From: Escherichia phage vB_EcoM-ZQ1
Direction: 5' to 3' (one strand)
Length of the DNA: 64,000 nt
Sequence record: MW650886.1
Shown piece after piece: positions 5,535 to 59,925 of this stretch. Under the pieces are notes generated by a model. It made no database searches and was not told the origin of the DNA. It saw nothing but the letters and a program-made list of their open reading frames with translations. The first letter of the stretch is position 1. Each line of letters opens with the position of its first letter. The position numbers were made by a program, and so were the translations under genes.

Positions 5535-6239
5535 CTATTTCTTCTTATGCATACGACGTGCATCTTTCCACACAGACATCTGGCTCTGTTTCTGGAAGCG
5601 GGCAGTGCGCATGAAGAGAACGATCTCCCAGTACTGTGGCTCAATCTCGTAAAGCTGTGAACGGAACTGATCGGCGCGGTACAGCTTCACACAGTGATTG
5701 TACAGCGGATGGTTGGCGAAGCGCTTCAGGGCTTCCCAGGTGAGCTTCAGACGCGTCTTTGAGCGGTATGCCCGTTCGTTACGCAACTTGATCAGATCCT
5801 CAAACACCAACAGCCTGAGCTTCGGTGGCAGGTAGTGCATGTTGAGCCCCCAGAGGTATGTCACACCCTTCTCTCCAAAGGTGATACCATCACCCTTGAC
5901 AAAGTTGAAGAAGAACACCAGAGGGTACATATCCCAGTAGGGTAGTTCATTCTTCGTCAGAGCATCATATTTGAAATAGAACATGCGCCCGACTATATAC
6001 CGCACACCTTGTACCGGACGTTTGTGATCAGCAAACGCCTGTTTCATATGGTTGGGACTCAGGTTGGCGTCCTTAGACACACGCTCCATGAACCACACAT
6101 GCGAACGGCGGATGTTACGCTTCGCCTCTGGACCGAAGTGTTGACGGTACTTGCGGATGTAACGCTTGACCAGCTCGGGGGCGTCCATCTCGGCCGGAAA
6201 CAGCAACGGATCTTCTTCGCCAGCTGCATTCTTTGCCAT
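5535..6239 (-). CDS. hypothetical protein
   Basis: 234 aa; ATG with AGGAG SD. Confidence 0.5.
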   Translation of the reverse strand: MAKNAAGEEDPLLFPAEMDAPELVKRYIRKYRQHFGPEAKRNIRRSHVWFMERVSKDANLSPNHMKQAFADHKRPVQGVRYIVGRMFYFKYDALTKNELPYWDMYPLVFFFNFVKGDGITFGEKGVTYLWGLNMHYLPPKLRLLVFEDLIKLRNERAYRSKTRLKLTWEALKRFANHPLYNHCVKLYRADQFRSQLYEIEPQYWEIVLFMRTARFQKQSQMSVWKDARRMHKKK

Positions 6240-6250
6240 TTGTCAACTCC

Positions 6251-6258
6251 TATAAATA
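6251..6258 (+). promoter_or_regulatory. T4-type late promoter motif TATAAATA
   Basis: Exact TATAAATA 34 nt upstream of the start of the 6293 gene; gp55 is encoded in this window. Confidence 0.5.
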
Positions 6259-6292
6259 ATAACAGTTATTTTATTTAAGTGGAGTCCTCACC

Positions 6293-9104: not shown

Positions 9105-9405
9105 GGAACACCCCCACGGTTGTCAGTACGAAACGTACCATAATGATAACCAGCAACATCACTGTAGAAAACACTACACGCTTGATCATTTTATCGCGCA
9201 TGTGGATGAACTGATATGAGAGGATAGCCTCGGCCTGTTGATCGGCACGAACGTTCGTGTCACGATGTGGGGACAGTGTGTAGAAGTTGATCTGGTACAC
9301 ATACGCATGAACCAGAGTGAAGAACGACTTCACCCAGACCAAGACAACCACTAACAACAAAGCGAACGTCAGGAAGTTCGCCAACAACCAATAATCGACC
9401 ATCAT
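9091..9405 (-). CDS. small membrane protein
   Basis: 104 aa with hydrophobic segments at both ends; AGAGGT SD; start overlaps the stop of the upstream gene. Confidence 0.4.
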   Translation of the reverse strand: MMVDYWLLANFLTFALLLVVVLVWVKSFFTLVHAYVYQINFYTLSPHRDTNVRADQQAEAILSYQFIHMRDKMIKRVVFSTVMLLVIIMVRFVLTTVGVFHAAV

Positions 9406-9992
9406 ATACCTCTGTTGAAGTCTGGATTATTCTCAATGAAGTAAGAGCCACAAGCCATTATCGCAAACGAATCCACGAGGTCATCGATTGGCTTGGGATC
9501 CTTAACTTCCAACATATCCATTATACCGCGCATGCTAACATTGAACAGCGACTCGAAGTGAGCGATCATGGCGTGTTTATCCGCGTTGCCCTTGTCGGTG
9601 AACATCTTCTTCACATGGGATGGCGTCACGATCTGGAAGTCGAAATTGTTACGGCGCAGGGCTTGCTTCAATAGTGAGGTATTCTCTGCGGTCTGGCATA
9701 TGTTGTTGGAGTTCTTAGAGTTGCCCATAGCATACCCTTCAAGAGCGATCGCATCCGGCTTCTCAGTCAACAGAACAGCCTCAGCCCATTTACAGATATT
9801 ATAGAAGCGTTCTTCTGGGGTCTCCCACTTCGGTTGCTTCATGATAAGGATGTTCTGACGAATCTGAGTGCAATACTTCTCCACAGTATAATATGCGTAG
9901 AAGCGCAGATGATCAAAATCAAGAGGGTCTTTATCATCCCAGAAGCACAGGGATGGACAGCCATAGGAGTAGTCGATTCCGCAATATTTCAT
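9402..9992 (-). CDS. RuvC-like Holliday junction resolvase
   Basis: N-terminal MKYCGIDYSYG (RuvC GIDPG-like) and C-terminal DDLVDSFAIMACG (RuvC D..AD.LAIA-like); listed start is TTG, re-set to the internal ATG. Confidence 0.5.
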   Translation of the reverse strand: MKYCGIDYSYGCPSLCFWDDKDPLDFDHLRFYAYYTVEKYCTQIRQNILIMKQPKWETPEERFYNICKWAEAVLLTEKPDAIALEGYAMGNSKNSNNICQTAENTSLLKQALRRNNFDFQIVTPSHVKKMFTDKGNADKHAMIAHFESLFNVSMRGIMDMLEVKDPKPIDDLVDSFAIMACGSYFIENNPDFNRGI

Positions 9993-10043
9993 GTAAATAG
10001 CCCATAACAAAGTTTCATTGGTGTATGGGCTATTTACGCTGGG

Positions 10044-11037: not shown

Positions 11038-11086
11038 TTTCATTCCTCGTTATAATTACTCTTACAATATACCGTGGAGATACATT

Positions 11087-11893: not shown

Positions 11894-12042
11894 TGTTTGA
11901 AACTGATTTATTATCCTACTTCGTGATGTGTGATGAATTGAAGTTACACGGCTATAGCATATTTGAAATCAACGAGTCGATGCCATGGCATCTTGACTTG
12001 TTAACCGAAGCCCTCAAGGTCAGGTTGTCTAAGAAACAGTAA
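11893..12042 (+). CDS. small hypothetical ORF (49 aa)
   Basis: TAATG-coupled to the previous gene (MFETDLLSYFVMCDELKLHGYSIFEINESMPWHLDLLTEALKVRLSKKQ), followed directly by an intrinsic terminator; below the ORF-track size cutoff. Confidence 0.25.
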   Translation: MFETDLLSYFVMCDELKLHGYSIFEINESMPWHLDLLTEALKVRLSKKQ

Positions 12043-12066
12043 TCCCGCTTCGGCGGGATTTTTATT
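12042..12066 (+). terminator. intrinsic terminator
   Basis: ATCCCGC-TTCG-GCGGGAT hairpin followed by TTTTTATT. Confidence 0.6.
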
Positions 12067-12112
12067 GTCTTAACTGCAAAATAGGTTAACACGCGTTCTC
12101 TTTACCTGAAAT

Positions 12113-12121
12113 TGCTATAAT
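12113..12121 (+). promoter_or_regulatory. possible extended -10 promoter (TGcTATAAT)
   Basis: TGCTATAAT in the long non-coding stretch upstream of the gp5-like gene; no clear -35. Confidence 0.25.
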
Positions 12122-12277
12122 GGGCTTGTTCCCGAGTCATTTGTTGGTGTTTGTCTGTTTTGAATCAGATTGTCAGTAAAATACCATTTTTCAAGGAGTG
12201 TTCTGGGGTGTACAGTTATTGCCTCGCCCTTATGCCTCCATGGCATTGGAATGGTGCTGCCCGCATAGGGCGGTTTG

Positions 12278-12296
12278 ATGAGCGAAGCGAATAGGA
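12278..12296. repeat. 19-mer shared with 54425..54443 in inverse orientation
   Basis: ATGAGCGAAGCGAATAGGA is the exact reverse complement of TCCTATTCGCTTCGCTCAT; each copy is flanked by ATAAAACAAATA. Confidence 0.55.
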
Positions 12297-12363
12297 TCGA
12301 ATAAAACAAATAAAATGAACGGAAGCAGAGCTTCCTATAGTATATAAGGCAAAATCAGCTGCG

Positions 12364-12371
12364 CATAAATA
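12364..12371 (+). promoter_or_regulatory. late-promoter-like motif CATAAATA
   Basis: 7/8 match to TATAAATA, 34 nt upstream of the gp5-like ATG; same spacing as the motif at 6251. Confidence 0.4.
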
Positions 12372-12405
12372 CCTTCAAATCCTTGTTTGACAACCGGAAC
12401 TCAAT

Positions 12406-14016
12406 ATGTTAGACAATATGAGATGGTTTTACGGCACCGTTGAAGATGTCAACGATCCAGACCAAAACGGGCGAGTTGCTGTTCGCATATATGGCGTACA
12501 CACCGACGATCCCGTCCTCCTGCCTACGGACAAACTCCCATGGGCGAAGGTACTGATGCCTGCTTCAAACGCCTCCTCTGCTGGTTTAGGTTGGTCTCCA
12601 ACGGGTATCATTCCTGGTACTGAGGTTATGGGGTTCGCCCTTGACGAAGCATACCAGAATTTACGCATCACCTGGACTTGGACTGGTTCAAGTCCTACTG
12701 ATGGTGCCGACACAAACCCACTGGCTCTCGGGCAGGTCGTTCAATCTGTGGAACGTCAGGCGTACAACGCCGTCACTGACGTTCCTGTGAAACAAGAAGA
12801 CGAACCACAACCAGATCCACAACCACCTGTTGGCGGGTATGATCCAGAGAAGTGGATGACAATCGCTCGTGGCGAATTGGGTATCAAGGAGTACGCTGGA
12901 AAGTTCAACAACAACCCGCGCATTATAGAATATCACAAGACAACCTCCCTTGGTGCTTCTGAAGATGAAGTGTCGTGGTGTGCGGCGTTCGTGGGTTGGG
13001 TTATGATACAGGCTGGATACACGTCTACACGCTCCGCTCTTGCCCGATCTTACCTTACATGGGGCACTCCACTGTCAGCACCACAATATGGCGCTATCGT
13101 AGTCTTCCGGCGTGGTAACAACCCTACATTTGGACACGTAGCGTTTGTGCAGAAGTTCGATGCAAACTATGTCTGGTGTATTGGTGGCAACCAATCCGAT
13201 TCAGTGAAGGTTAGTCGTTTCAGACGTTCTTCGGTCTTGGGATATCGTTGGCCTGGTCCTGCTAACACAGCCACAGCCGTGCCTGCGCAGCAGAATGGTA
13301 AATGGTCAGAACCTATCCCAGATCGTACTCCAAAGGAACAACCGACTCCGGCTCCTACTGGGCGAGTACAGGATATTGACAACACTGGAGAAACCATGGT
13401 TCCGGCTGCGGGTGGCTCCAAATACCCGTACAATAACGTCATGGTGTCCCGAGCTGGGCATATTATGGAAGTGGATGACACCCCTGGTGGTGAACGTCTT
13501 CATTGGATGCATAAGTCTGGGTCTTACAAGCAAATGTTGCCGGATGGTGATGTGGTCAACAAGTCCGTCAAAGACCACTATGACCTGACGATGTTCAACA
13601 AGCGTTATTATGTCGGCGGGGACCACAACCTGACGGTCAAAGGAACTGAAGTTCAGCGCAAGACAGGTGAGGTCTATCATTTGCATTCCAACAACTACTC
13701 AAATGTGGTTGCGGGCACAGCGCTGATGAAATTCAGTGACCTAGCGGAAATGCAAGCGCAGAATATTCTGCGCATTATCTGCGAGACTCTGGAGGTCGGC
13801 GGGACATTGAAGGTTCCTAAGATTCTAACGACTGAGATCATCGCTGACAAACTGACTGTCGCTCAGACGATCAATGGTAACATCATATATGCCGAAGGTG
13901 CTGGTCGCGCTTCTTCTCTGTCAGGTGCAACCCCTGCATCCCCTACGGGTCCGGGTGAGATTGACATCAAGGCAGAATTAAAAGACAATGGTGGTAATTT
14001 CGGCACCAAAGAGTAA
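12406..14016 (+). CDS. baseplate central spike protein (T4 gp5-like N-terminal OB domain) with cysteine peptidase (CHAP/NlpC-P60-like) domain
   Basis: WFYGTVEDVNDPDQNGRVAVRIYGVHTDDPVLLPTDKLPWAKVLMP matches the T4 gp5 N-terminus; internal SWCAAFVGWV...GHVAFVQ gives the Cys/His peptidase signature; Gly/Ser-rich C-terminus. Confidence 0.8.
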   Translation: MLDNMRWFYGTVEDVNDPDQNGRVAVRIYGVHTDDPVLLPTDKLPWAKVLMPASNASSAGLGWSPTGIIPGTEVMGFALDEAYQNLRITWTWTGSSPTDGADTNPLALGQVVQSVERQAYNAVTDVPVKQEDEPQPDPQPPVGGYDPEKWMTIARGELGIKEYAGKFNNNPRIIEYHKTTSLGASEDEVSWCAAFVGWVMIQAGYTSTRSALARSYLTWGTPLSAPQYGAIVVFRRGNNPTFGHVAFVQKFDANYVWCIGGNQSDSVKVSRFRRSSVLGYRWPGPANTATAVPAQQNGKWSEPIPDRTPKEQPTPAPTGRVQDIDNTGETMVPAAGGSKYPYNNVMVSRAGHIMEVDDTPGGERLHWMHKSGSYKQMLPDGDVVNKSVKDHYDLTMFNKRYYVGGDHNLTVKGTEVQRKTGEVYHLHSNNYSNVVAGTALMKFSDLAEMQAQNILRIICETLEVGGTLKVPKILTTEIIADKLTVAQTINGNIIYAEGAGRASSLSGATPASPTGPGEIDIKAELKDNGGNFGTKE

Positions 14017-18840: not shown

Positions 18841-18879
18841 GGTTTTATTATACGCCGCCCTCGTAGATTGAAGGCGGCG
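18841..18879 (-). terminator. hairpin after phoH
   Basis: CGCCGCC...GGCGGCG stem followed by TATAATAAAACC on the minus strand. Confidence 0.4.
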
Positions 18880-19843: not shown

Positions 19844-20638
19844 TTAACTGAAACTCTTGTATGCTGCTGCGAGCTTCTTGTCGTACTGGTTCTTGGCATA
19901 CGCCGGACCATTATAGCGCCGTGCAAATTCAGACCAGTTCTTGTCCTTCAGAGCCTTCCAGAGCTTGGCGTCAGCCTTGATGAACTTCACGAATGCCATC
20001 AAATGAGCACGTTCTCCTGTCAGGAAGTCGTTGAACATCTCCTTGGCGTTGGCATATCCACAGACCTGGCAGTTGAATCCCATGATCTGGAAGAGACCGT
20101 AAGAGGCGCTCTCGTACGCACAATCCTCATCGATGTTGATGGCCGCATGAAGTCGATCCAACTCCGCGTCGCCTCCCGTGTACCCGCCTGCGGAAGGACT
20201 GACCAACGTCGGGTACATATGTCCCATGGCATTCGCCCGAGCCTGTCCGAACTTCGCCATCAGCTTCTTATACATGATGTGACGCTCAAATAATGTCTTG
20301 ATCTTACCTGACTTGGTGAAGCCCGTGCCGCGCGACTCAACCTGATTCACCGCCTTGACAGAGGCAAGGTCAACACCCAGATCATTAGCAGCATCAATCA
20401 GGTCTGACTCAGTTAAATGATCCTGATGGGCGTCTCCGGCGTTGCGAATAGCATAGGAGGTCTTTGGACCCACGATACCATCAATGACAAGCCCCGCACC
20501 CGCCTGAACAGTCTTGACGGCGTTCTCTGTTGCCTTACCAAAGATGCCGTCAGCGACGAGGGTGAAGCCGATTTTGTTGAGGCTATCCTGAAGTGCCTTC
20601 ACTTCAGTACCACGGTTGCCAAATTTTAGAATGGCCAT
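19844..20638 (-). CDS. endolysin (N-terminal peptidoglycan-binding domain, C-terminal muramidase-like domain)
   Basis: PG_binding_1-like N-terminus (GNRGTEVKALQDSLNKIGF...DGIFGKATENAVK); listed start is TTG, re-set to ATG MAILKFG with GGAGG SD. Confidence 0.55.
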   Translation of the reverse strand: MAILKFGNRGTEVKALQDSLNKIGFTLVADGIFGKATENAVKTVQAGAGLVIDGIVGPKTSYAIRNAGDAHQDHLTESDLIDAANDLGVDLASVKAVNQVESRGTGFTKSGKIKTLFERHIMYKKLMAKFGQARANAMGHMYPTLVSPSAGGYTGGDAELDRLHAAINIDEDCAYESASYGLFQIMGFNCQVCGYANAKEMFNDFLTGERAHLMAFVKFIKADAKLWKALKDKNWSEFARRYNGPAYAKNQYDKKLAAAYKSFS

Positions 20639-20700
20639 AAGAAAATACCTCCACAATGAATGTAGAGGTATTTAAAGTGAAAGTGAACTGACTTTGAGGA

Positions 20701-21000
20701 TTACATGGTTTCCAGCATAGAATTCAGCTTAACGATCTGCATTTCAATATTTTTCTTTAGACTCAGATACGCTTCAACTGGGGAAGCGGTTGGGCCAGTC
20801 TGATATTTTCCTGCTTGAGCTGACCAACACCGAGTGGCTTTCCAATAAAAGAGGAATACAGTGGATTCAACGCTTTCTATTTCGATAGCACCAACACCGA
20901 GTGGGCAATATTTGCGTATACCGTATCTCCACTGCTTACCAGTCTCTTTTTCCAGGGCTTGGCAAGCAACTGAACCAATTTGTTCTAGAGTAAGTTTCAT
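20701..21000 (-). CDS. hypothetical protein
   Basis: 99 aa ORF. Confidence 0.4.
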   Translation of the reverse strand: MKLTLEQIGSVACQALEKETGKQWRYGIRKYCPLGVGAIEIESVESTVFLFYWKATRCWSAQAGKYQTGPTASPVEAYLSLKKNIEMQIVKLNSMLETM

Positions 21001-21185
21001 CGCACTACCACCACTGGCATGATTTCTCTGAATGACTCGCGCACCTCAGTGTCGTACCCGTATTTCTCAAGGATTGCCATCATCGCCTGCTCAAGTTCCT
21101 CTTGGAACTGAGGAAAGACTTTGTTCGGGATGCGTTCAACAACCCAGAGAGCGCCCGCAGACGCCTGAATGACTGCTCGTGCCAT
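20997..21185 (-). CDS. hypothetical protein
   Basis: 62 aa; stop overlaps the start of the downstream ORF. Confidence 0.35.
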   Translation of the reverse strand: MARAVIQASAGALWVVERIPNKVFPQFQEELEQAMMAILEKYGYDTEVRESFREIMPVVVVR

Positions 21186-23435: not shown

Positions 23436-23789
23436 TTACGACAGCTGCTTCAGTTTGTAGATCGTCTGATAGCACAGCGTCTTGATTTCATCAAGTGTGT
23501 TCTGAAGGTGGGAGTCACACTGCTTGTAGATGCCATCTACGTCTATCACCACACTGTTAATATAGGAGATAGGGTCTGGGTTGTACAATTTGATATTCTC
23601 GAATGATGGAACATACTGGCCACCCGCACCGATGTATGCTTCGGTAAACGTGTCCAGCAAGTCCTCTAGATCCCCGTAGAACTCCCCGAGTGCCTTGTGC
23701 TTGGCATAGGACGTTGTAACGAAGTGTAAGGCATGAGAGTGGGCTATAGCAAGCAGTCCACGGTTGATGAAAATACTCGCATTGACCAT
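23436..23789 (-). CDS. hypothetical protein
   Basis: Listed start is GTG; re-set to ATG MVNASIF with GAGGA SD; terminator hairpin upstream. Confidence 0.45.
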   Translation of the reverse strand: MVNASIFINRGLLAIAHSHALHFVTTSYAKHKALGEFYGDLEDLLDTFTEAYIGAGGQYVPSFENIKLYNPDPISYINSVVIDVDGIYKQCDSHLQNTLDEIKTLCYQTIYKLKQLS

Positions 23790-23799
23790 GATGTTGTCC

Positions 23800-23834
23800 T
23801 CAGAAAAAGAAATCCCCCTGTATTTAAGGGGGAT
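23800..23834 (-). terminator. intrinsic terminator
   Basis: ATCCCCC...GGGGGAT hairpin followed by TTCTTTTTCT. Confidence 0.5.
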
Positions 23835-23874
23835 TGTAATCACTGCTTGACAAGAACCATCTTGATGGTTTCAC

Positions 23875-24180
23875 TTAGTCTTTGTCGGCAGACTTGCCAA
23901 AGAAGAATTCGAAACCGTCATGGACAGCAACGACTTCCTGACCTTGGGAGATACCGTGAGTCTGGTCTGGGGTCAGCTTCACCTTGATGGTGTTGCCATC
24001 GGTTAACTCCAGGTTGTAGACATCCGCCTGATTGTCAGGAGTGATCTGGGTCACGGTAGCGCCGGAACACCACTGAGTGCCATCAGCTTGTTTGGTGATG
24101 GATACGGTCTTACCCTGGACACCAGCATGGGTCTGAGGTTTAGCGGCTTGTTCTTTAAAATATTCGATAAACGGTTTCAT
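23875..24180 (-). CDS. hypothetical protein, probable late gene
   Basis: 101 aa; TATAAATA 24 nt upstream of the ATG plus GAGGAG SD. Confidence 0.45.
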   Translation of the reverse strand: MKPFIEYFKEQAAKPQTHAGVQGKTVSITKQADGTQWCSGATVTQITPDNQADVYNLELTDGNTIKVKLTPDQTHGISQGQEVVAVHDGFEFFFGKSADKD

Positions 24181-24204
24181 CTTAATCTCCTCGGGGATTT
24201 AAGT

Positions 24205-24212
24205 TATTTATA
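24205..24212 (-). promoter_or_regulatory. T4-type late promoter motif TATAAATA (minus strand)
   Basis: Reverse complement of TATTTATA, 24 nt upstream of the 23875..24180 ATG, directly after a terminator hairpin. Confidence 0.45.
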
Positions 24213-27527: not shown

Positions 27528-27602
27528 TTTATATCTCCTGATTGAATTAATGGCGGTTTCTTCTAATTAGCGAAACCAAAAGGGAGCGTCAGCCCCCTTA
27601 TC

Positions 27603-32497: not shown

Positions 32498-33605
32498 CCA
32501 GTTTGTTCAGGCGTTGTTGGGCAGCATTATAGAAGTGCTCTGCCAGTTTACAGACATTGTCGGGGCGCTGAATGTTGTTCCCTGCGCGGATATCCTTCTT
32601 CAGGACTTCCACCGCATCGGTCGCCACCATCTCTTCGGTGACCTCAACCTTCTCGGCAGCAACAGTAATCGTCCGGTCGATGAAGTTGTAGTCGATACAC
32701 TTGCAGCGCTTCATGGCATCACAGAACTTTTCATAATGCTTAGCATTGTCGCGGTTCTGTACAATAACCTTAACGATTTGCCCTTCAATACCCAAGCCTG
32801 TGTTCAACCATTCCGGGTCGATCCAATTACCTTCTTCATCAGAGGACAACTTGGTGTAATCATATTCCACATAGCGGAACAGCGTCTGGTGCTCGGCGTT
32901 CGGGATAAAGATCTCACCACCACGCATGTCGTCTACATAGAAGCCACGGTTAGTGCCGTCTTTGTAGTCTTCCCAGTTCAGGTGATATGGAGTCCCAATA
33001 TATTGAATGTTACCTTCCATCGAACGGGTATGGAAATGCCCCGTGTCGACCCTGGTAAACTTGGAAAGCAGAGCAACGTCGATCTGACCGTGATCACAAG
33101 TAGAAGACTGGTACATTTTGAACCCCGCCAGCTCCAGATGCGCAAAACAGTACTCGGCGTCTGTATCTTGTATCGCTTTAATAGACGCATCATAGTTCTC
33201 CTTGTTGATCCAAGGTAGCAGTAGAGTCTTGACACCCTCGATCATCACTTCGGTCGGTTCGCTGTAATAGCAGTACACATCCGGGTCGAGTTCGTTCAGG
33301 TAGGATGGCCAGTTGATGCGGTTGGACTCTTCCAGGGTGATGTCATGGTTGCCCACGATGCCATTCCACTTGATACCAGCCGCTTTCAATGCAGGGGTGA
33401 GTTCATCCTTCAGCCAGTCTTTGTCACGACCGTACATGAATTTGCGGACATCAAACGTATCACCGAACTGCCAGACCTCTTTGATATCAGAGTCGGCAAG
33501 TTCAGGAATGAAATAATTGATGAGATAGTTCTTGATGAAGTCGCGAACGTATCGAGAACCATTACGGCTCCCGATATGCAGATCACCAATTTTAGCAATC
33601 GCCAT
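32490..33605 (-). CDS. 47: recombination nuclease subunit (T4 gp47 / SbcD-Mre11-like)
   Basis: GDLHIG, GDTFDVRK and IVGNHD phosphoesterase motifs match T4 gp47 (GDWHLG, GDIFDVRK, IVGNHD). Confidence 0.85.
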   Translation of the reverse strand: MAIAKIGDLHIGSRNGSRYVRDFIKNYLINYFIPELADSDIKEVWQFGDTFDVRKFMYGRDKDWLKDELTPALKAAGIKWNGIVGNHDITLEESNRINWPSYLNELDPDVYCYYSEPTEVMIEGVKTLLLPWINKENYDASIKAIQDTDAEYCFAHLELAGFKMYQSSTCDHGQIDVALLSKFTRVDTGHFHTRSMEGNIQYIGTPYHLNWEDYKDGTNRGFYVDDMRGGEIFIPNAEHQTLFRYVEYDYTKLSSDEEGNWIDPEWLNTGLGIEGQIVKVIVQNRDNAKHYEKFCDAMKRCKCIDYNFIDRTITVAAEKVEVTEEMVATDAVEVLKKDIRAGNNIQRPDNVCKLAEHFYNAAQQRLNKLDA

Positions 33606-34333
33606 TATTCTGTTTCTCCTTCGGTTTCGTCTAGGCCGAATTGGGTATTGCCGAAGTCCTGATCTAAATTTTCTTCGGCCTGCGCTGGTGTCGTATTCTT
33701 AGCCTGCGCCATGTATTGAAGTATACCTTTCGCAATCTTTTTATTCGATTCTGCGAGACGAGCTGCCTCCACCTTCTCTCGTTCCTTCTGCCTTTGAGCG
33801 TCCTTTTTGTTCTCAAAGTTGCCGATACGTTCACGGAAGTCCATGCCAATTCCTGTAGCATCAACAAAGATCTCTTGTTGGAAGTCGGGGTCATCTGCCA
33901 GGCCTGCGAACCCACCCGCCTCTTCAAATGAGCGCAATTTAATGTACGTGTGCTCTTCTTCGATGTTCAGTTTACGAGCAAATGAGCGATCAGCACACAT
34001 GGTCACCCAAGAAAAGAAGTTGATCTTCCCTTTCTTACCGATGTGGTCGACGTCAAAGGTGTGGAGGTAACGCAGGATGTTGACGATTGCTTCAGAGACC
34101 ATGTCTTCACGGAAGGGATAATCGCGATAGTTGTAGCGGGTACTCATCTTGGTGATGATGCGCTGGACCTGCAGAGCAACATAGTTGGGGATCTTTGGAA
34201 GCCTGGTGCCCTCAGCAAGTGCTTTCTTGCGGGCGGGGATCCAATCACGAAGGATACTAATGACACGCTCGTTGTCTTCGTCCGTGAAATATTTGACGAC
34301 ATTCTCCCCTCTGTCCACGAAGTTCATTCCCAT
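33605..34333 (-). CDS. 55: late-transcription sigma factor (T4 gp55-like)
   Basis: RYNYRDY..EDMVSEAIVN..YLHTFD resembles T4 gp55 RFNFSGY..EMIADGIEA..GLHNFD; directly upstream of gp47/gp46 as in T4; acidic C-terminal extension. Confidence 0.6.
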   Translation of the reverse strand: MGMNFVDRGENVVKYFTDEDNERVISILRDWIPARKKALAEGTRLPKIPNYVALQVQRIITKMSTRYNYRDYPFREDMVSEAIVNILRYLHTFDVDHIGKKGKINFFSWVTMCADRSFARKLNIEEEHTYIKLRSFEEAGGFAGLADDPDFQQEIFVDATGIGMDFRERIGNFENKKDAQRQKEREKVEAARLAESNKKIAKGILQYMAQAKNTTPAQAEENLDQDFGNTQFGLDETEGETE

Positions 34334-34874: not shown

Positions 34875-34882
34875 TATAAATA
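34875..34882 (+). promoter_or_regulatory. T4-type late promoter motif TATAAATA
   Basis: Exact TATAAATA 35 nt upstream of the ATG at 34918. Confidence 0.5.
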
Positions 34883-34917
34883 TCCCAAACTGGTTTTATA
34901 GAAAGAGGAATGAAACT

Positions 34918-35685
34918 ATGGCACCCCGCGCATATCGTTTCAGTCTCACCGCCCCGCAGATTGAGCAATTGCTCCTCTCTATCTATGATGCTATCAAGTC
35001 AGAAGATATCATCTATGATTATGCTGCAGGTGGGACTGCTGGACAAGTCGCAGCAGCGTCTGCTGTCAAGAACATGTGGTTGAAGCTCAACGAGATGGTG
35101 ACAGGCCAAGGTCTCAAAGATGCCATCAACGATGCAGAAGACAGCAACGTGTTCACCGACTATTATAAGTCTTTACTGGATCGCGAAGGCTGGAAATTTA
35201 TTGGATCGCCAGCAGATGAACTTCAGCGAGGCGACATCGATACCTCGAACTTCAAAGGTGGTGAGGTCATTCTACTTCAGAAGAACGCTTCGGGCAACCC
35301 AGAATTCCAATACTGGAAGCGAACCCCTGTTGCTGGGGGTGATCCTACCTTTGCATGGGCTTCGGTCTATGAAGGGAACTCCAATGATTCCAGCATAGAG
35401 ATTCCCGTGGTTGGCACCAGCGTACTCAAGGACATCCCCAAGGCACTCTTCCATATGATCGAGTTCAGAGTACATGTCTACGATGAGACACTGGGTCATT
35501 GGCAAGACACCGACGGGAAGGTAGGGTATCGTGGCGAGGATCTGATCTACAGTGTCTACAACCATATTCAGACCAAACCTCTCGCCACCATTGACTTCAG
35601 CCAAGATACGGACAATATGACGGTTTCTGTGACGTCGTTGGAACCGAATGTCAAGTGCCGTCTGTCCTTCGTTGCGGGTTACTAA
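34918..35685 (+). CDS. hypothetical protein, probable late gene
   Basis: ATG MAPRAYRF with AAGAGGAA SD; TATAAATA 35 nt upstream; the longer listed ORF begins inside the divergent RNase H gene. Confidence 0.5.
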   Translation: MAPRAYRFSLTAPQIEQLLLSIYDAIKSEDIIYDYAAGGTAGQVAAASAVKNMWLKLNEMVTGQGLKDAINDAEDSNVFTDYYKSLLDREGWKFIGSPADELQRGDIDTSNFKGGEVILLQKNASGNPEFQYWKRTPVAGGDPTFAWASVYEGNSNDSSIEIPVVGTSVLKDIPKALFHMIEFRVHVYDETLGHWQDTDGKVGYRGEDLIYSVYNHIQTKPLATIDFSQDTDNMTVSVTSLEPNVKCRLSFVAGY

Positions 35686-44094: not shown

Positions 44095-46296
44095 TTAGAT
44101 TTTGATTTCTTTCTCTGTCAGTTCGGCAGTGACCTTGTACTTCACGCCATCCACTTCAACTTCCATGGTGGACTCTTCCAGGTCGAGATCGGTGAACCAG
44201 CCATGGCCAGCAACGATACCATAAACCACTTTAGACAGCGTCTTGTTCAGGGCACGGACTTCGGTGATGGCCGCCTTGGCAGCAGCGTCGATCCAGTTTT
44301 CGATCAGCTGTTTCTGTAAGGCTTCAGGCACGGCAGTGATCATAGGAGACTTCACGAATGCTTCGTACTCCTTCAGCGCATTGGCGATGAACAAGTCACC
44401 AGCATTGAGTTTCTTGTTCTCGGCAATCTTCTTCTGTACCGCTGCGATAGACGGTAGAGATGAAGCGCCAGCGATCTTCACGTTCAGCTCACGGCTCATG
44501 TAGAAGTCGGTAGACTCTTTGGTCTCAGTCTTCGGTGAGAATCCGTAATCGCGGATGCCGTAGGAGGACAGGAACTCGGCCGCCTCAGCGCCGTACTGTA
44601 CTGCCAGGCCTTTGGCGTTACCCTTACCAACCAGGGCGTCTCGATAGAACTTCAGCACCTTCTGCTTGCCTTTCAGGGCTTCCAGACGGACATTATCCGC
44701 AAAGAACTGAGCAGCACTGATGTTCTTGACCATGGCGCGGTTGACCAGCGGTACGCTTTCCAGGTTCAGGACAAACACTTCCGGACCACCAAACACGTGG
44801 ACGCCCATTTCGATCAGCTTCTGTACAACTTCGATATCAGCCTTGAACGGTAGAGTCTTCACGTTAATGATACCGTCTTTGACGATGGTGTAGTTGCGCC
44901 ACTGGAAAGTATCCAGTTCTTCAGGCAGGCCAAACTTCTTCTGTGCGAATTCAGGCACAGCCACAGTACCGTGTTGAATTGTACGCACGCTGATGTTCGG
45001 GCGCTCGGAGTTATAGACCAAATCGCTGATTGGCACAACACCCAGGTCGTTGGTAGGTTCGAACGTCGGGTTCCACTCTTCGTGTTCTGCCAGCTTGAGA
45101 GCCAGGGCTTTACGCTCTTCTTTGGACTGAGCATTCGCGATCTGTTCTGCCAGCTTGTCTTCGGTGTCGTCGGTTTTCTGCACAGTACCGCGCCCGATGC
45201 TCTTATAGGAGAACATCGGATGCTTGGTAGCAACAGGCACACCAGCTTCAGCCAGGTACGTCAGCACGTCAACGACGGTCGTCGCATCTTCAGCCGGAAC
45301 CAGGTCATAGTCAATACCGTCAACGCCGCGCAGCTGGTCATCAACGATGGCCTGGGTCAGATCGTTCTTGATGTTGGAGTAGTCCTGCTTGGTGAAGCAG
45401 TTGCTGTACTGTTTGATGAAGCGAACGTCGCCCGTCTTCTTCAGCGCAGCCCAAACCAGATCTGCGTCCATAGTGTGTACGCCGTAGAACGCCAGCACAT
45501 ATGCCGCCTGGATGTCCGTCAGGCTATCCATCTGGTCGATCATGTTGGGGTTTACAACCCACAGCTTGGTGACGCTCTCAGGGATGCTCACGTGGCCGAT
45601 AGGATGGTCTTCATCCGGCTGTACCGCCAGCACAGTTGCTACGCCGTTTTCAACATAGATGGCGTGGGTGTATAGCAGAGGCACATCAACAACCACCTTC
45701 GGCACTGATGACTTCAGCACGTTTTCCAGTTCGGTCTGGTATTCGGTCTGACCTTCGGCAAACACGTGAGTTGCGCCAGAGCGCTCGGACATCTGCGCCA
45801 GCAGTTCACGGTTACAGTGCCAGCCGTATTCGATGAAAGTAATGTTATCGAACGCGGAAGGAAGTTTTTCGGCGGTATCCAGGATTTCATTGGAGTGCCA
45901 GCAGTTGTCATAACCATCGGTCATGAATGCCAGGTTGTTGACGTAGCCAGGTTTCTTCAGGTCACGCGCAGTATCCATCGCCAGTTTCAAAGGCTCAACA
46001 AAGCCAGTACATCCGGACGGTTGCAGGAAGCGATCGATCAGTTTGTTCAGCTCGCTCAGGTCAGACGCAGCACTAACCTGGCGGCCAGCGAACACAGTAC
46101 CAAAGTCTCCTTTGGAGGAGAAATACAGAACGCTCACAGTGTCTTCCGGTTTCACCAGGGAAGGCAGGTTCTCCTTCAGATGCTTACGGACTTCAGGGAG
46201 CGCACGGTACATAGAGCCGGAAATGTCTACAACGATTACATGGTTGGACGGAGCAGCAGTCGCAACCGCATTCTTAAATTCTAATGATTCAATCAT
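44095..46296 (-). CDS. von Willebrand factor A (vWA, MIDAS) domain protein
   Basis: N-terminal VIVVDISGSMY (DxSxS MIDAS) ... MTDGYDN; start re-set to MIESLEF. Confidence 0.6.
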   Translation of the reverse strand: MIESLEFKNAVATAAPSNHVIVVDISGSMYRALPEVRKHLKENLPSLVKPEDTVSVLYFSSKGDFGTVFAGRQVSAASDLSELNKLIDRFLQPSGCTGFVEPLKLAMDTARDLKKPGYVNNLAFMTDGYDNCWHSNEILDTAEKLPSAFDNITFIEYGWHCNRELLAQMSERSGATHVFAEGQTEYQTELENVLKSSVPKVVVDVPLLYTHAIYVENGVATVLAVQPDEDHPIGHVSIPESVTKLWVVNPNMIDQMDSLTDIQAAYVLAFYGVHTMDADLVWAALKKTGDVRFIKQYSNCFTKQDYSNIKNDLTQAIVDDQLRGVDGIDYDLVPAEDATTVVDVLTYLAEAGVPVATKHPMFSYKSIGRGTVQKTDDTEDKLAEQIANAQSKEERKALALKLAEHEEWNPTFEPTNDLGVVPISDLVYNSERPNISVRTIQHGTVAVPEFAQKKFGLPEELDTFQWRNYTIVKDGIINVKTLPFKADIEVVQKLIEMGVHVFGGPEVFVLNLESVPLVNRAMVKNISAAQFFADNVRLEALKGKQKVLKFYRDALVGKGNAKGLAVQYGAEAAEFLSSYGIRDYGFSPKTETKESTDFYMSRELNVKIAGASSLPSIAAVQKKIAENKKLNAGDLFIANALKEYEAFVKSPMITAVPEALQKQLIENWIDAAAKAAITEVRALNKTLSKVVYGIVAGHGWFTDLDLEESTMEVEVDGVKYKVTAELTEKEIKI

Positions 46297-46459
46297 CGTT
46301 ATTGCCTTCTTCAGGGTTGTCTTCGGCCTCACCTTCCGGCTTGGCCAGCATATATTCAAGGAAGTCGCGATTGAGTTCAATCTGACTCATCAGCGTTTCG
46401 CTCGGTTTAAAGCTGAGGTCGATGGTGTCTAGACCAGCTTTCTTGAATGGTTCTGTCAT
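46289..46459 (-). CDS. small acidic hypothetical ORF (56 aa)
   Basis: Hand translation MTEPFKKAGLDTIDLSFKPSETLMSQIELNRDFLEYMLAKPEGEAEDNPEEGNNDD; stop overlaps the vWA start; below the ORF-track cutoff. Confidence 0.25.
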   Translation of the reverse strand: MTEPFKKAGLDTIDLSFKPSETLMSQIELNRDFLEYMLAKPEGEAEDNPEEGNNDD

Positions 46460-46552
46460 GGTTAGTCGACCTTCACTTCAGTAACACCAGGTATTTCACG
46501 GACATGGGCCAGGCCTCTGTTTGTTAGTCATGGCGTATTATACTGCGAAGGG

Positions 46553-46798
46553 TTAATTGAAACGCCCAGCATTTACGCTGGACGTTATTGATATTGAAAA
46601 GGTTTTGACAAACTCAGGATTTGGAGGAAGCACCCTTCCATGTCTGCCGTCGCCATGGGCATGGCAACCGACACGGGCATCACATGGAGTGCACACCCAG
46701 AACTTCAGATTGCGGAGGTCAGGGCGATGAGGGTAGAGAACATCACCACCGACGAATTCGGCTGGGAGGCCACAGTAATCACATATAACAGGTTTCAT
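46553..46798 (-). CDS. zinc-ribbon protein
   Basis: CDYCG...CTPCDARVGCH; start MKPVICDY chosen because the longer listed ORF begins inside the upstream terminator hairpin. Confidence 0.4.
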   Translation of the reverse strand: MKPVICDYCGLPAEFVGGDVLYPHRPDLRNLKFWVCTPCDARVGCHAHGDGRHGRVLPPNPEFVKTFSISITSSVNAGRFN

Positions 46799-47274: not shown

Positions 47275-49293
47275 TTAGAACACAACTTTCACAGTGCGGT
47301 TGAACGAACCGCTCACCTTCACGAACACGTGGTTGCGTTGGGTGGTAGAGAAGCCCAGACCGGACAGCTGCTCAGTGCTTGGCTGTACTTTAATCTTACC
47401 ACCTAACATTTCAAAAACCTTGCGGTGTTTATCAAGTTCCGGCTTCAGATATTCGTTATAGAAACCACGGGTGCCGACAGGGTTAGCACAACCTTCCAGG
47501 ATGAAGAACACGTGCTTGTTGCCAGTCTGCTCGCCGTCCCAATGGTTTGGTGAGTTCAGAACCAGCTGTACCTTCTGGAAGACGGAGGTCTTGATACCCC
47601 AGATTTCCTGAGAGCGAGCGTCGTCTTTCAGGGTAGAACTGATGTCAACCACCTGACCAGCGCGAACCTGAACCACAACAGCCAACGTGCGATCTTTGTT
47701 ACCCAGGCCAGGGTGTGAGAAGCGCTTAGTCTGACCTTTGTATTCAACTTCGATTTCGAAACCAACGTCACAGGTTTCACGCTTGTTGAAGTTGGTGACA
47801 TAGAACTCATAATTCCCGTCGCGCAGCTTGCTTTCATCGCTAAAGAAGATGTTCTCCACCGGACGGCGGTTTGGATCAATGCCGTCCATACCGTTCATGT
47901 CGATGTCCAGAGTTGCGCCAGTTGACGAACGACGGTTGCGAAAATATACGTGGTTGTGAAGAGGATCGTTCATGCTCAGATCCAGGTCGTCGTTGTTATG
48001 CCAAGCCAGTGACACGCGGAGGAAGCTGTCGACATTGCCGCCTGCGGTCTTCACGCGCTCTTTGATGGAGTCGGCCACTTCGCCATTGTACGACCAGCTG
48101 AAGCCGTTGTTCCACTTGAACAGGTTAGGAGCGCCTGCGGTAGCCGGAGCGATCAGGGACATCAGGTTGCCAATGTGAGAGTTTTCAACCAGTACTTCCA
48201 GGGAATGCGCCTTTGGCAACACGTTGGTCAGGAAGTCGTCGATCGTGATCTCTTCAACCTTGTCCAGGGACTTGGTCGGAGTCTTCACTTCAGACGCCAG
48301 CTGAGCAAACGGGTCCATCTTCTTCTGAGCTGCCAAATCGGCGAACAGAACGTTGTTGATGGTCAGATCGTCATACACGGCATAACGGCGACCCAGTGAA
48401 TCAGTCAGACCCAGCGCTTCGACTTCTTTCTGCGCGTTTTCAATCATCGACTTCGTGACCAGCGCGGTTGGGCGCTTGTAGTTCGTCGGAGCGACTTTGG
48501 CTTCAAAGGACTTCACGGCGGTTTCCAGATCCCGGCCTTCATTGAGGTCTACCAGCAGAGAGCCAATCACGGTATTACGAATGCCGTGAGGGATATGACC
48601 GTTTGCACGGTAGCCAGTGCGCCAAGCCCACAGAGCGCGTTTCTCTTCTGCAGTTTGTTCGTACAGGGTCTTGTTCACCACGAACGCCTGCACTGCCGCT
48701 TTGTGCTCTTCACCGCGATACAGAGAATTCTGGTCAATCAATTCCAGAACGATTTCAGCCGATTCCAGAGACAGTTCACGCAGGCCGCGCTCAAACACTT
48801 CAATCGCCTGGCGGATTTCACCCTTCTTAGAAGCGATGGTATCTGCCCGCAGAACATAGCTACCCAGCAGGTCGGTGTGGAAGTGGTTGTAGGTGCGGAC
48901 AATACCGTCTTTCATTTCGTGATTCGACCCAACACCAACTTTCTTGGTGTCGTTGAAGTACACATCGACGATTGCGTGCTGCTTAACATATGCTGACAGC
49001 GCCGCAGCGACAACGTCGTATTCGTTACCCAACTGAATGTTATCCCAGATAGAGATCACGTTCAGGTCGGAGTCGATGGTGACCACACCGCCGATATTAC
49101 GGATGAATTGTTTACAGCAGGTACAGTCGTGCTCGGTACGCTCACGATAAAGCGGGTTAGTGCCAGCAGGGAAAGAAGACAGATACAGATCCCACAGAGC
49201 ATCTTTATCGATGTTGGTCATGAACAGACCAGTTGCTGACATGGCCAGCACGTTATTGTTGACAGCTACTGCGAAGGGCTTAAAATCTGACAT
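47275..49293 (-). CDS. large hypothetical protein (672 aa)
   Basis: Long ORF with GGAAG SD; no family-B polymerase motifs (DxxSLYPS, YGDTDS) seen on inspection. Confidence 0.6.
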   Translation of the reverse strand: MSDFKPFAVAVNNNVLAMSATGLFMTNIDKDALWDLYLSSFPAGTNPLYRERTEHDCTCCKQFIRNIGGVVTIDSDLNVISIWDNIQLGNEYDVVAAALSAYVKQHAIVDVYFNDTKKVGVGSNHEMKDGIVRTYNHFHTDLLGSYVLRADTIASKKGEIRQAIEVFERGLRELSLESAEIVLELIDQNSLYRGEEHKAAVQAFVVNKTLYEQTAEEKRALWAWRTGYRANGHIPHGIRNTVIGSLLVDLNEGRDLETAVKSFEAKVAPTNYKRPTALVTKSMIENAQKEVEALGLTDSLGRRYAVYDDLTINNVLFADLAAQKKMDPFAQLASEVKTPTKSLDKVEEITIDDFLTNVLPKAHSLEVLVENSHIGNLMSLIAPATAGAPNLFKWNNGFSWSYNGEVADSIKERVKTAGGNVDSFLRVSLAWHNNDDLDLSMNDPLHNHVYFRNRRSSTGATLDIDMNGMDGIDPNRRPVENIFFSDESKLRDGNYEFYVTNFNKRETCDVGFEIEVEYKGQTKRFSHPGLGNKDRTLAVVVQVRAGQVVDISSTLKDDARSQEIWGIKTSVFQKVQLVLNSPNHWDGEQTGNKHVFFILEGCANPVGTRGFYNEYLKPELDKHRKVFEMLGGKIKVQPSTEQLSGLGFSTTQRNHVFVKVSGSFNRTVKVVF

Positions 49294-52079: not shown

Positions 52080-52502
52080 CTATTTAGCCTTGCGCGGTTT
52101 CGCTTTGGCGTTCAGCTCAGTGCGTCTCATCTTCTCGCGTATCTCGGCCAGGACTTCCTTCGGCAAGAAACGGACGTACTCCGATGCCTTCTCCATGCTG
52201 ATGTAGAAGTACTCTGAGAGTAACTTCACGTCAGGATCAATCGGACCTTTCTTAGACCATTTGTCGTAGCGTTTCCGAGCCGGAATGGTGTAAAAGGCAT
52301 ATGACCATTGCATCCATGGAGTGATAGCATGTAGCTTATTCATCTGTTGCGCAGCCACTAGAGTGTCTTTGCTCTGAGCTAAACCACGCCGCGTCATAAA
52401 CGGGTCGAATCCTTTCAACACTTCTGGGTCATCAGACCGCAAAAGGTTTTCTTTGCTGCTGTTCAGAGCAGCCAGGTAATCGAACAATCCAAGGGCGGCC
52501 AT
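52080..52502 (-). CDS. 62: clamp loader small subunit (T4 gp62-like)
   Basis: PARKRYDKWSKK resembles T4 gp62 PRGKRYGKWAK; sits between gp44 and regA as in T4; start re-set to MAALGLF with GGAAGTGA SD. Confidence 0.6.
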   Translation of the reverse strand: MAALGLFDYLAALNSSKENLLRSDDPEVLKGFDPFMTRRGLAQSKDTLVAAQQMNKLHAITPWMQWSYAFYTIPARKRYDKWSKKGPIDPDVKLLSEYFYISMEKASEYVRFLPKEVLAEIREKMRRTELNAKAKPRKAK

Positions 52503-56483: not shown

Positions 56484-56511
56484 ACAAAATCTCCCAAGGA
56501 TTATGGGGTAT

Positions 56512-57258
56512 TTAGTGATCCGGCCAGACTCCGTTTTGTTCTTTATCCATGCGATGATACAGACGAACACGCTCAAACATCTTTGTCAGAATGTCATCAC
56601 GGTTGAACTCAATGACGGTTGGTAGAGGGGAAGACTCGTTGGCAATCACGTTGATGAGGCGGGTGATCTTGACGCCGAACATCTGCTGGAACATGACCGA
56701 ATATAAGCACAGCTGGATACTGTAATCCTCGATCATGCCCCGCGTCTTCATGGTGTTCGATGTCTTGAAGTCGATGACAGCAGGTTTACCCTCATAAACC
56801 CCGATAAGGTCTACACGACCTGCAAGACCAAGCACCTCGCTATATAATGGGATCTCCTGAGCATAGATCTTTGTCATCTTGTTCAGGTAAGGGAACAGCT
56901 GCTTGAACATGAACATGTATTCGCCAGCCGCTTCCAACACTTCTTTCATTGGGCGGTTCTTTAGATACAGTTCACACGCAAGGTGCAGCTTCTCCCCTCG
57001 GTCAGCACAGCGCATGGTCTCAAGGTCAGCGGCTTCTGCGCCCAGCTTCTTCCTCCAAGACTCAAGCCATTCATGATCTCCAGTGCGTCCCAGCATAGTC
57101 GTGACGGATGTCAGTTTAACACCAGACGGTGAAACATAATGACGACCATTCTCCGTCGTAACACATTCCAGTTCCTTATGAGGAAGTTCGTATTGCTGGA
57201 ATGTGTAATGGCGGTTTTCGAAGTCATTCAGCTTGCGTAGATCCTGGAGAGATGCCAT
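56512..57258 (-). CDS. PD-(D/E)xK family nuclease (RecB/Cas4-like)
   Basis: VDLIGVYEGKPAVIDFKTS and QLCLYS resemble the D...E.K / QxxxY nuclease core. Confidence 0.45.
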   Translation of the reverse strand: MASLQDLRKLNDFENRHYTFQQYELPHKELECVTTENGRHYVSPSGVKLTSVTTMLGRTGDHEWLESWRKKLGAEAADLETMRCADRGEKLHLACELYLKNRPMKEVLEAAGEYMFMFKQLFPYLNKMTKIYAQEIPLYSEVLGLAGRVDLIGVYEGKPAVIDFKTSNTMKTRGMIEDYSIQLCLYSVMFQQMFGVKITRLINVIANESSPLPTVIEFNRDDILTKMFERVRLYHRMDKEQNGVWPDH

Positions 57259-59705: not shown

Positions 59706-59715
59706 TATTTAGGGA

Positions 59716-59925
59716 TCATGGTAGTTTGTAAACGAAGTTGGACCAGAACTTACGAACAAACTTCTTGACATAAACCATTCGGTTGGCGTATTCCCCATCC
59801 TTCAGGTCATTGTAGGTCTCGATCCCTACCGCGCCCAAGAAGTACGCCGTGAAGATATAGCAGAACAGATTGATGACGACAAACATGATGTATCTCCGCT
59901 GTGTGTTGAGTTTAATAAATACCAT
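59716..59925 (-). CDS. small membrane protein
   Basis: 69 aa hydrophobic ORF; uncertain. Confidence 0.3.
   Translation of the reverse strand: MVFIKLNTQRRYIMFVVINLFCYIFTAYFLGAVGIETYNDLKDGEYANRMVYVKKFVRKFWSNFVYKLP

Follow-up and report, generated by a model that had tools for sequence, protein, structure and literature searches.

In a 64,000-nucleotide (nt) stretch of the genome of Escherichia phage vB_EcoM-ZQ1 (sequence record MW650886.1; hereafter the window), four short A/T-rich boxes resemble the late promoters of bacteriophage T4. They lie just upstream of the genes for gp54, gp5 and two proteins of 255 and 101 amino acids (aa), and are very probably the -10-type late promoters of an Agtrevirus phage. 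Three of the boxes read TATAAATA and the one upstream of gp5 reads CATAAATA (Table 1). The interpretation is supported by the positions of the boxes, the positional enrichment of their core hexamer TAAATA, its association with particular genes, its conservation across genera and the presence of gp55, gp33 and gp45 homologues.

The late promoter of T4 is known to consist of TATAAATA at -13 to -6, with single deviations tolerated and an AT-rich segment downstream, and it is served by the gp55 sigma factor, gp33 and the gp45 clamp. In the first-pass annotation of the window, the boxes were described as real late promoters of this type, served by a gp55-like sigma factor. Their positions and their distances from the start codons (34, 34, 35 and 24 nt for gp54, gp5, the 255-aa gene and the 101-aa gene) are as claimed there. 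The promoter claim itself is supported by comparative and statistical evidence; the recognition by gp55, the start sites and the late timing are what we infer.

Genomes compared

The window is a segment of an Agtrevirus genome (Ackermannviridae, ViI-like). The 9-kilobase stretch around the boxes is 99% identical to Escherichia phage LHE287 and 92-93% identical to Shigella phage Ag3 and its relatives. The Ag3-type relatives are ViI-like phages, and related records in the same match set are classified as Ackermannviridae. On the LHE287 sequence, the window begins at about base 48,864 and runs in the same direction, and the annotation of LHE287 was carried onto the window via BLAST. The LHE287 genome was assembled to 148,863 of its 149,485 base pairs (bp), and enriched words upstream of its genes were sought without a preset motif.

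For the comparison between genera, syntenic regions were taken from Kuttervirus BSP101, Klebsiella phage Bullseye, Serratia phage IME250 (Taipeivirus) and Dickeya phage LIMEstone1, and the 75 nt located 5' of each orthologous start codon were aligned. The locus of Vibrio phage K475 was left out, as it is not syntenic. The promoter zone was defined as 18-45 nt upstream of a same-strand start, which covers 1.9% of the positions of the window and 1.7% of those of LHE287.

Position and enrichment of the motif

The octamer TATAAATA is only mildly enriched by count in the window (3 copies where 0.83 are expected, a number reached in 2 of 100 shuffles), and count alone would therefore not carry the promoter claim. 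CATAAATA is found twice against 1.33 expected, which is not significant, and its second copy (51808), placed within the regA gene on the opposite strand, looks like chance. All three copies of TATAAATA are non-coding (p=5e-4), and only 7.9% of the window is non-coding. Similarly, 12 of the 24 TAAATA copies in the window are intergenic (p=6e-8), and 10 of them lie within the promoter zone (p=1e-11). It was also checked whether the motif occurs equally often inside coding regions, and this is clearly not so. No avoidance of coding sequence by TAAATA was seen in the window (24 found against 17 expected).

Across the LHE287 genome, 27 of 60 TAAATA copies fall in the zone against 1.0 expected (p=1e-31), and it is these 27 sites on which the motif statistics given below are based. 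TAAATA is the most enriched hexamer upstream of LHE287 genes, with 24 of 105 upstream regions containing it where 1.2 would be expected, most commonly in the extended forms CTAAATA, ATAAATA and TTAAATA. The exact TATAAATA occurs in five copies, four of which are intergenic, with a start codon 24-35 nt away. Among the other hexamers that differ from TAAATA by one base and have the same A/T content, most show no enrichment in this zone. A modest enrichment is seen for TAAGTA and TAATTA.

In LHE287, the median distance between site and start codon is 32 nt and the range 20-42 nt. Of the 28 intergenic copies of TAAATA, 24 lie in this range against 8.6 expected from uniform placement within each gap, and none is closer than 20 nt. 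Such a band fits a promoter that leaves room for a start site and a ribosome-binding site. The uniform spacing noted earlier is borne out only in part: 34, 34 and 35 nt are at the mode, but the spacing is a band. The earlier emphasis on plus-strand genes likewise needs widening. The three plus-strand boxes are present, but at least six more sites exist on the minus strand of the window, along with a variant at gp26. About a dozen such sites are thus present in the window and roughly 27-30 in the genome, and the flagged boxes are four of them.

Conservation across genera

Upstream of gp5, CATAAATA is kept in all four genera, in two of which the flanks are unalignable. At gp54, TATAAATA is kept in three of four, Kuttervirus and the Taipeivirus-like phage among them, and LIMEstone1 has TATAAGTA (TAAGTA) in its place. 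The opposite-strand TAAATA of the neighbouring gp2 gene is kept in all four genera, and the 15 bases between the gp2 and gp54 boxes vary. The box of the 255-aa gene is retained in four of five phages, with TAAGTA in Kuttervirus BSP101. That of the 101-aa gene appears as TAAATA in three of five and as CTAATTA in two Taipeivirus-type phages. A core that is kept while its flanks diverge is the pattern expected of a functional element.

Architecture of the motif

Among the 27 sites, only TAAATA is invariant. AC is found at -13/-12 in 7 sites and is thus commoner than TA, and the core is directly preceded by C (12 sites), A (7), T (6) or G (2). All four flagged boxes have A there. The T4-type octamer of the first-pass annotation therefore stands as far as three exact copies of TATAAATA and one of CATAAATA are concerned, but the recognised element would be (c)TAAATA. 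No -35 element was found: in the 15 bases that precede the motif (-15 to -1), no position carries more than 0.3 bit of information. Beyond the motif, bases two to four are C- or T-rich (C is present in 15, 10 and 11 of the sites, respectively), and an AT-rich downstream segment was not found. The core is followed by 'cc' at gp5, 'tccc' at the 255-aa gene, 'ataa' at gp54 and 'actt' at the 101-aa gene.

Six bases beyond the motif, an A is found in 18 of the 27 sites and in all four flagged boxes. As the T4 box spans -13 to -6, it is at this A that +1 is predicted.

The fourth base of the core seems to be variable. In LHE287, the major capsid gene (gp23) has CTAAGTA and the portal gene (gp20) has CTAATTA. 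CTAATTA is also found upstream of a gene for a 1096-aa protein (window 27564-27569, minus strand), where it is conserved in all the genera examined. The N-terminal two-thirds of this protein are unlike the LHE287 version.

Genes behind the motif

Among the LHE287 genes with at least 25 nt of non-coding sequence upstream, 13 of the 19 structural genes have the motif in the zone, compared with 3 of the 19 recognisable early ones (p=0.0025). The 13 structural genes are gp2, gp4, gp48, gp54, gp5, gp22, gp19, gp18, gp14, a VriC-like gene, two tail-spike genes and gp6; the endolysin gene also has the motif. Structural genes that lack it often carry a one-base variant in its place, namely TAAGTA at the major capsid gene and TAATTA at the portal, gp26 and 1096-aa genes.

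It had been predicted that the 314-, 255- and 101-aa products are late, likely virion, proteins, and this is borne out by their orthologues. The 314-aa protein, though correctly placed in the late or virion class, is no unknown but the gp54 baseplate tube initiator, whose orthologue in LIMEstone1 is a confirmed structural protein. The orthologue of the 255-aa protein, LIMEstone1 ORF093, is annotated as 'unknown structural protein; confirmed structural protein', and that of the 101-aa protein, ORF080, as 'confirmed structural protein', both by mass spectrometry. The boxes lend further support to calling these two products virion proteins. The start of the 255-aa gene at 34918, and not the longer open reading frame (ORF) from 34759, agrees with the annotation of LHE287.

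At 23790-24180, the 101-aa gene is a shortened form of the 189-aa virion protein gene of LIMEstone1 and Kuttervirus. ORF079, the small gene that follows ORF080 in LIMEstone1, is absent from both the window and LHE287.

Late transcription factors and proposed mechanism

Homologues of the three T4 late transcription proteins are encoded in the window (Table 1). The gp55-like sigma factor that the first-pass annotation had placed at 33605-34333 is confirmed by its match to PHROG 234; it had no match in the Pfam scan or the PDB sequence search.

By homology with T4, the host core RNA polymerase, together with the phage gp55, would recognise TAAATA after the onset of replication, and the gp33 co-activator and gp45 sliding clamp homologues would assist late initiation. 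In terms of the T4 late box, the hexamer would span -11 to -6, and a -35 element is lacking. The sixth base downstream, an A, would be the transcription start (Table 1), and the resulting leaders of 19-30 nt would carry the ribosome-binding site. The predicted transcripts would encode virion parts, that is, gp54, gp5 and the 255-aa and 101-aa proteins. The genes of the window are mostly on the minus strand; the eight on the plus strand are gp54, gp26, a 49-aa ORF, gp5, gp25, the 255-aa gene and two further unknowns. Three of the four marked genes are antisense to the surrounding early genes, and each of them thus needs a promoter of its own.

Predicted promoters within hairpins

In 15 of the 27 leaders of LHE287, the motif pairs over at least 5 bp with the ribosome-binding or start region, compared with 11 of 78 control leaders (p=5e-5). 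In the long RNA, the median unpaired probability of the ribosome-binding region is 0.37, against 0.53 in the controls (p=0.006). At the flagged boxes, the accessibility of the Shine-Dalgarno (SD) sequence hardly differs between the long and the late RNA, and the pairing is less than 5 bp at gp5, the 255-aa gene and the 101-aa gene and equal to 5 bp at gp54.

The clearest cases are the genes for the endolysin and a RuvC-like resolvase. The endolysin leader forms a 13-bp hairpin (20643-20673, minus strand), in which AAATACCTCTAC pairs with a 3' arm that holds the SD sequence GGAGG, the promoter core being in the 5' arm. Five phages from four genera share this hairpin, with one pair changed in a compensatory manner and two further changes of the wobble type. 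In the resolvase leader (9994-10036), the two arms of a long hairpin that reaches to the ATG are formed by inverted copies of TAAATA. The minus-strand site at 10031-10036 is the 5' arm, and the 3' arm, which abuts the ATG, contains the plus-strand copy at 9994-9999. Compared with other genera, one arm of the hairpin in the window is longer by a G and the other by a C, and these columns are scored as broken by the alignment. The two extra bases are apparently a paired insertion.

In T4, gene e and I-TevI are known to be controlled in such a way. The ribosome-binding site is hidden in the early read-through RNA, and the late transcripts start inside the hairpin. Gene 49 of T4 is regulated in the same manner. 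The layout of the endolysin hairpin is that of the T4 lysozyme gene e, and the resolvase hairpin recalls the regulation of gene 49. A rule by which promoters within hairpins would be limited to co-directional genes exposed to read-through was rejected, as the pairing is present at 9 of 19 co-directional and 6 of 8 divergent genes. In the divergent pairs, it stems from two inverted TAAATA boxes.

It is tentatively proposed, with doubt somewhat outweighing confidence, that the gp55 of Ackermannviridae may read a shorter and looser element than that of T4, TAA[A/G/T]TA, free at -13/-12 and C-rich downstream, and that more than half of the promoters may sit in the 5' arms of hairpins that serve as terminators or trap the ribosome-binding site, so that only transcripts started inside would be expressed. 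If true, a trick known from gene e, gene 49 and I-TevI of T4 would be in genome-wide use. The same hairpins could also be terminators, as annotated in LIMEstone1, and the hairpin-embedded promoters are reported here as a lead.

Alternative explanations

Several points weigh against reading the boxes as T4-type late promoters. The full octamer, with TA at -13/-12, is present in only 4 of the 27 sites, and the segment just 3' of the motif is C-rich and not AT-rich as in T4. The motif definition is incomplete, given TAAGTA and TAATTA at the LHE287 major capsid and portal genes, and TAAGTA replaces the core in one genus at two of the flagged sites (gp54 in LIMEstone1 and the 255-aa gene in Kuttervirus). 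The motif is also found at genes of early type, namely those of the DNA polymerase, regA and uvsW. According to Kutter et al. (2011), the sequence recognised in late transcription of ViI-type phages had yet to be identified, and for the Ackermannviridae the literature search turned up neither transcript 5' ends nor time-course data.

The boxes might instead be the -10 elements of host sigma-70 early promoters, the plus-strand genes being read early by the unmodified host polymerase. TATAAATA does contain TATAAA, which matches five of the six bases of TATAAT, and the gp54 box overlaps a sigma-70-like match (TTGCCA-16 nt-AATAAT) that scores 10/12. The other three flagged boxes have no such match, however, and in other genera AATAAT at gp54 is replaced by AATATC or AATACC while TAAATA is kept. 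Its TTGCCA is the start of the gp2 coding sequence read in reverse. The -35 region is unconserved over the 27 sites, the early promoters of the family carry another motif (TTCAAT-N14-TATAAT, for example upstream of nrdA), and the genes behind the flagged boxes are baseplate or virion genes. This explanation is thus highly improbable. Even more so is a chance origin, in which the boxes would be A/T-rich strings in short spacers or terminator tails with no promoter function. It draws on the mild enrichment of the octamer and on CATAAATA, which is at chance level with one copy in coding sequence. It draws too on the 101-aa gene box, which sits directly 3' of a GC hairpin (GCCCCTTCGGGGGC), in the A/T tail of what could be a mere terminator, and on the several TAAATA copies that are hairpin arms. 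Chance does not account for an enrichment specific for strand and distance, with no site closer than 20 nt, nor for its lack in most one-mismatch hexamers of like A/T content. Furthermore, the motif is kept while the adjoining spacer bases vary, and it is linked to structural genes.

A role of TAAATA mainly as an RNA or terminator signal, in which the hairpin arm ends upstream transcripts or hides the ribosome-binding site and the promoter look is secondary, is very unlikely as well. The excess of pairing with the SD or start region and the conserved endolysin hairpin with its compensatory change, on which a terminator is annotated in LIMEstone1, speak in its favour. Yet there is little or no such pairing at the gp5, 255-aa and 101-aa gene boxes, and that at gp54 is borderline and arises via the inverted gp2 motif. 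SD accessibility is nearly unchanged at all four flagged boxes, and 12 of the 27 sites have no hairpin at all. As the same arrangement in T4 exists because the late promoter is inside the hairpin, an RNA signal would complement rather than replace the promoter function. The late-promoter interpretation is therefore retained as the favoured one.

Relation to known systems and earlier predictions

Like those of T4, the predicted promoters consist of an A/T-rich -10-type box with no -35 element, and the phage encodes homologues of gp55, gp33 and gp45. They lie just upstream of virion and lysis genes on either strand, with a purine six bases downstream, and some sit in hairpins, as at gene e and I-TevI of T4. 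Unlike in T4, only the last six bases (TAAATA) are fixed, AC or C being commoner than TA at -13/-12, and the downstream segment is C-rich. The sigma factor is of 242 aa, and TAAGTA or TAATTA variants are found at the capsid, portal and gp26 genes. In a review of T4, a late promoter variant of Aeromonas phage Aeh1 is described, with (a/g)C in place of TA at -13/-12. The commonest form here, ACTAAATA or CTAAATA, shows the same departure from T4, a likeness that was compared by description only; Aeh1 belongs to another phage family and infects another host.

Such promoters have been predicted before in close relatives. Anany et al. (2011) searched Ag3, which is of the same genus as the window (93% DNA identity), with the T4 octamer, allowing one mismatch, and listed putative late promoters in their Table S2. 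Their Porf072, 'tctttgccatttgtcaactcctataaata', matches window positions 6230-6258 exactly over 29 nt and includes the gp54 box; Porf084, 'tataaggcaaaatccgctgcgcataaata', matches 12343-12371 with one difference and includes the gp5 box. Porf072 was assigned to gp2 (orf072), though its strand reads towards gp54, and promoters of the 255-aa or 101-aa genes were not singled out. In the GenBank record of LIMEstone1 (HE600015; Adriaenssens et al. 2012), -10 signals are marked as 'putative late promoter', these being computational predictions. The mark is TAAATA at the orthologues of the 101-aa, 255-aa, gp2, gp26, RuvC-like and endolysin genes, and it is CATAAA at gp5 and AAATAC at ORF078, each one or two bases off the core. 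Three of the four flagged sites are thus marked through their orthologues (gp5, 255-aa and 101-aa). LIMEstone1 has the same gene order as the window, and the hexamer is at orthologous positions for gp2, the RuvC-like gene, gp26, gp5, the endolysin gene, ORF078, ORF080 and ORF093. It differs in that no gp54 promoter is annotated (TAAGTA is found there) and in that ORF080 is longer than the 101-aa gene.

A later paper on Agtrevirus quotes CTAAATAcCcc as the motif of the family ('Viunalikevirus'). The flagged boxes match its core in all four cases and the extended motif only in part. A 2024 review of the Ackermannviridae makes no mention of promoters or transcription. The boxes are therefore a correct rediscovery of a published prediction, and as such they are already known.

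A search with the T4 octamer catches about 1 in 7 of the late promoters of the family (4 of 27), and TAAATA combined with a distance of 20-42 nt from the start codon catches most of those predicted. For this phage, the sites can serve as a map of its late transcription units, with little import beyond annotation.

Further sites and features of the window

The predicted promoters and the main genes discussed are collected in Table 1.

Table 1. Predicted late promoters, late transcription factors and marked genes in the window
Feature	Position	Strand	Gene, distance or evidence	Predicted +1
TATAAATA (core TAAATA 6253-6258)	6251-6258	+	predicted late promoter of gp54; 34-nt gap (6259-6292) to GTG 6293	A at 6264 (29-nt leader)
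CATAAATA	12364-12371	+	predicted late promoter of gp5; 34-nt gap (12372-12405) to ATG 12406	A at 12377
TATAAATA	34875-34882	+	predicted late promoter of 255-aa gene; 35-nt gap (34883-34917) to ATG 34918	A at 34888
TATAAATA	24205-24212	-	predicted late promoter of 101-aa gene; 24-nt gap (24204-24181) to ATG 24180	A at 24199
TAAATA	6272-6277	-	32 nt upstream of gp2 start (6239); back-to-back with gp54 box; absent from first-pass annotation	
TAAATA	10031-10036	-	38 nt upstream of RuvC-like resolvase gene (9402-9992); late promoter annotated in LIMEstone1	
TAAATA	20669-20674	-	30 nt upstream of endolysin gene (19844-20638); late promoter and terminator annotated in LIMEstone1	
TAAATA	23821-23826	-	31 nt upstream of 117-aa MobD.6-like gene (23436-23789); loop of CCCCCT/AGGGGG hairpin	
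TAAATA	52081-52086	-	30 nt upstream of regA; overlaps 3' end of gp62 gene	
TAAATA	56509-56514	-	25 nt upstream of uvsW; overlaps stop codon of upstream gene	
TATAATTA, one-base variant (TAATTA core)	11051-11058	+	28 nt upstream of gp26 (11087); late promoter annotated in LIMEstone1	
gp55-like late sigma factor, 242 aa	33605-34333	-	PHROG 234 'late sigma transcription factor' E=1e-51; annotations of relatives	
gp33-like late-transcription co-activator, 81 aa	8621-8866	-	PHROG 254 E=3e-20; LHE287 annotation	
gp45-like sliding clamp, 222 aa	53577-54245	-	PHROG 223 E=1e-64; LHE287 annotation	
gp54 baseplate tail-tube initiator, 314 aa	6293-7237	+	LHE287 annotation; PHROG 3629 'tail tube protein' E=8e-177	
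gp5-like baseplate hub (hub/lysozyme) with CHAP domain	12406-14016	+	Pfam Gp5_OB and CHAP; LHE287 annotation	
101-aa gene	23875-24180	-	94% identity over 100 aa to N-terminus of 189-aa LIMEstone1 ORF080; PHROG 4048 positions 1-100/189	
255-aa gene	34918-35685	+	LIMEstone1 ORF093 orthologue, 92% identity over 255 aa	

The site at the MobD.6-like gene is kept in all five phages. The LIMEstone1 orthologue of this gene, ORF078, has a late promoter annotated, and its product is a confirmed structural protein. At gp26, the window and LHE287 have TATAATTA, and Kuttervirus, the Taipeivirus-like phage and Limestonevirus have TATAAATA; the form in the window is either a tolerated variant or a weakened promoter. 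A 256-aa ORF on the minus strand has its annotated start at 59719, upstream of a TAAATA copy (59706-59711). Downstream of this copy come a 12-bp hairpin and an in-frame ATG (59677), which may be the true start of the ORF, with a late promoter of its own.

The 363-nt non-coding gap upstream of gp5 (12043-12405) contains terminator-like hairpins at 12041-12060 and 12123-12138 on the plus strand and at 12335-12321 on the minus strand. No known RNA family was matched by Rfam in the window, this gap included. Upstream of nrdA (18847-18872, minus strand), there is a copy of TTCAAT-N14-TATAAT, presumably an early promoter. Its TTCAAT box is flanked by a GC-rich inverted repeat (GCCGCC...GGCGGC) that reaches into the spacer and is kept in all five phages.

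In gene content, the window lacks counterparts of the LHE287 genes for nicotinamide phosphoribosyltransferase and ribose-phosphate pyrophosphokinase (window about 46296-46553; LHE287 94072-97000), and it has two small ORFs at 20701-21185 that are extra relative to LHE287.

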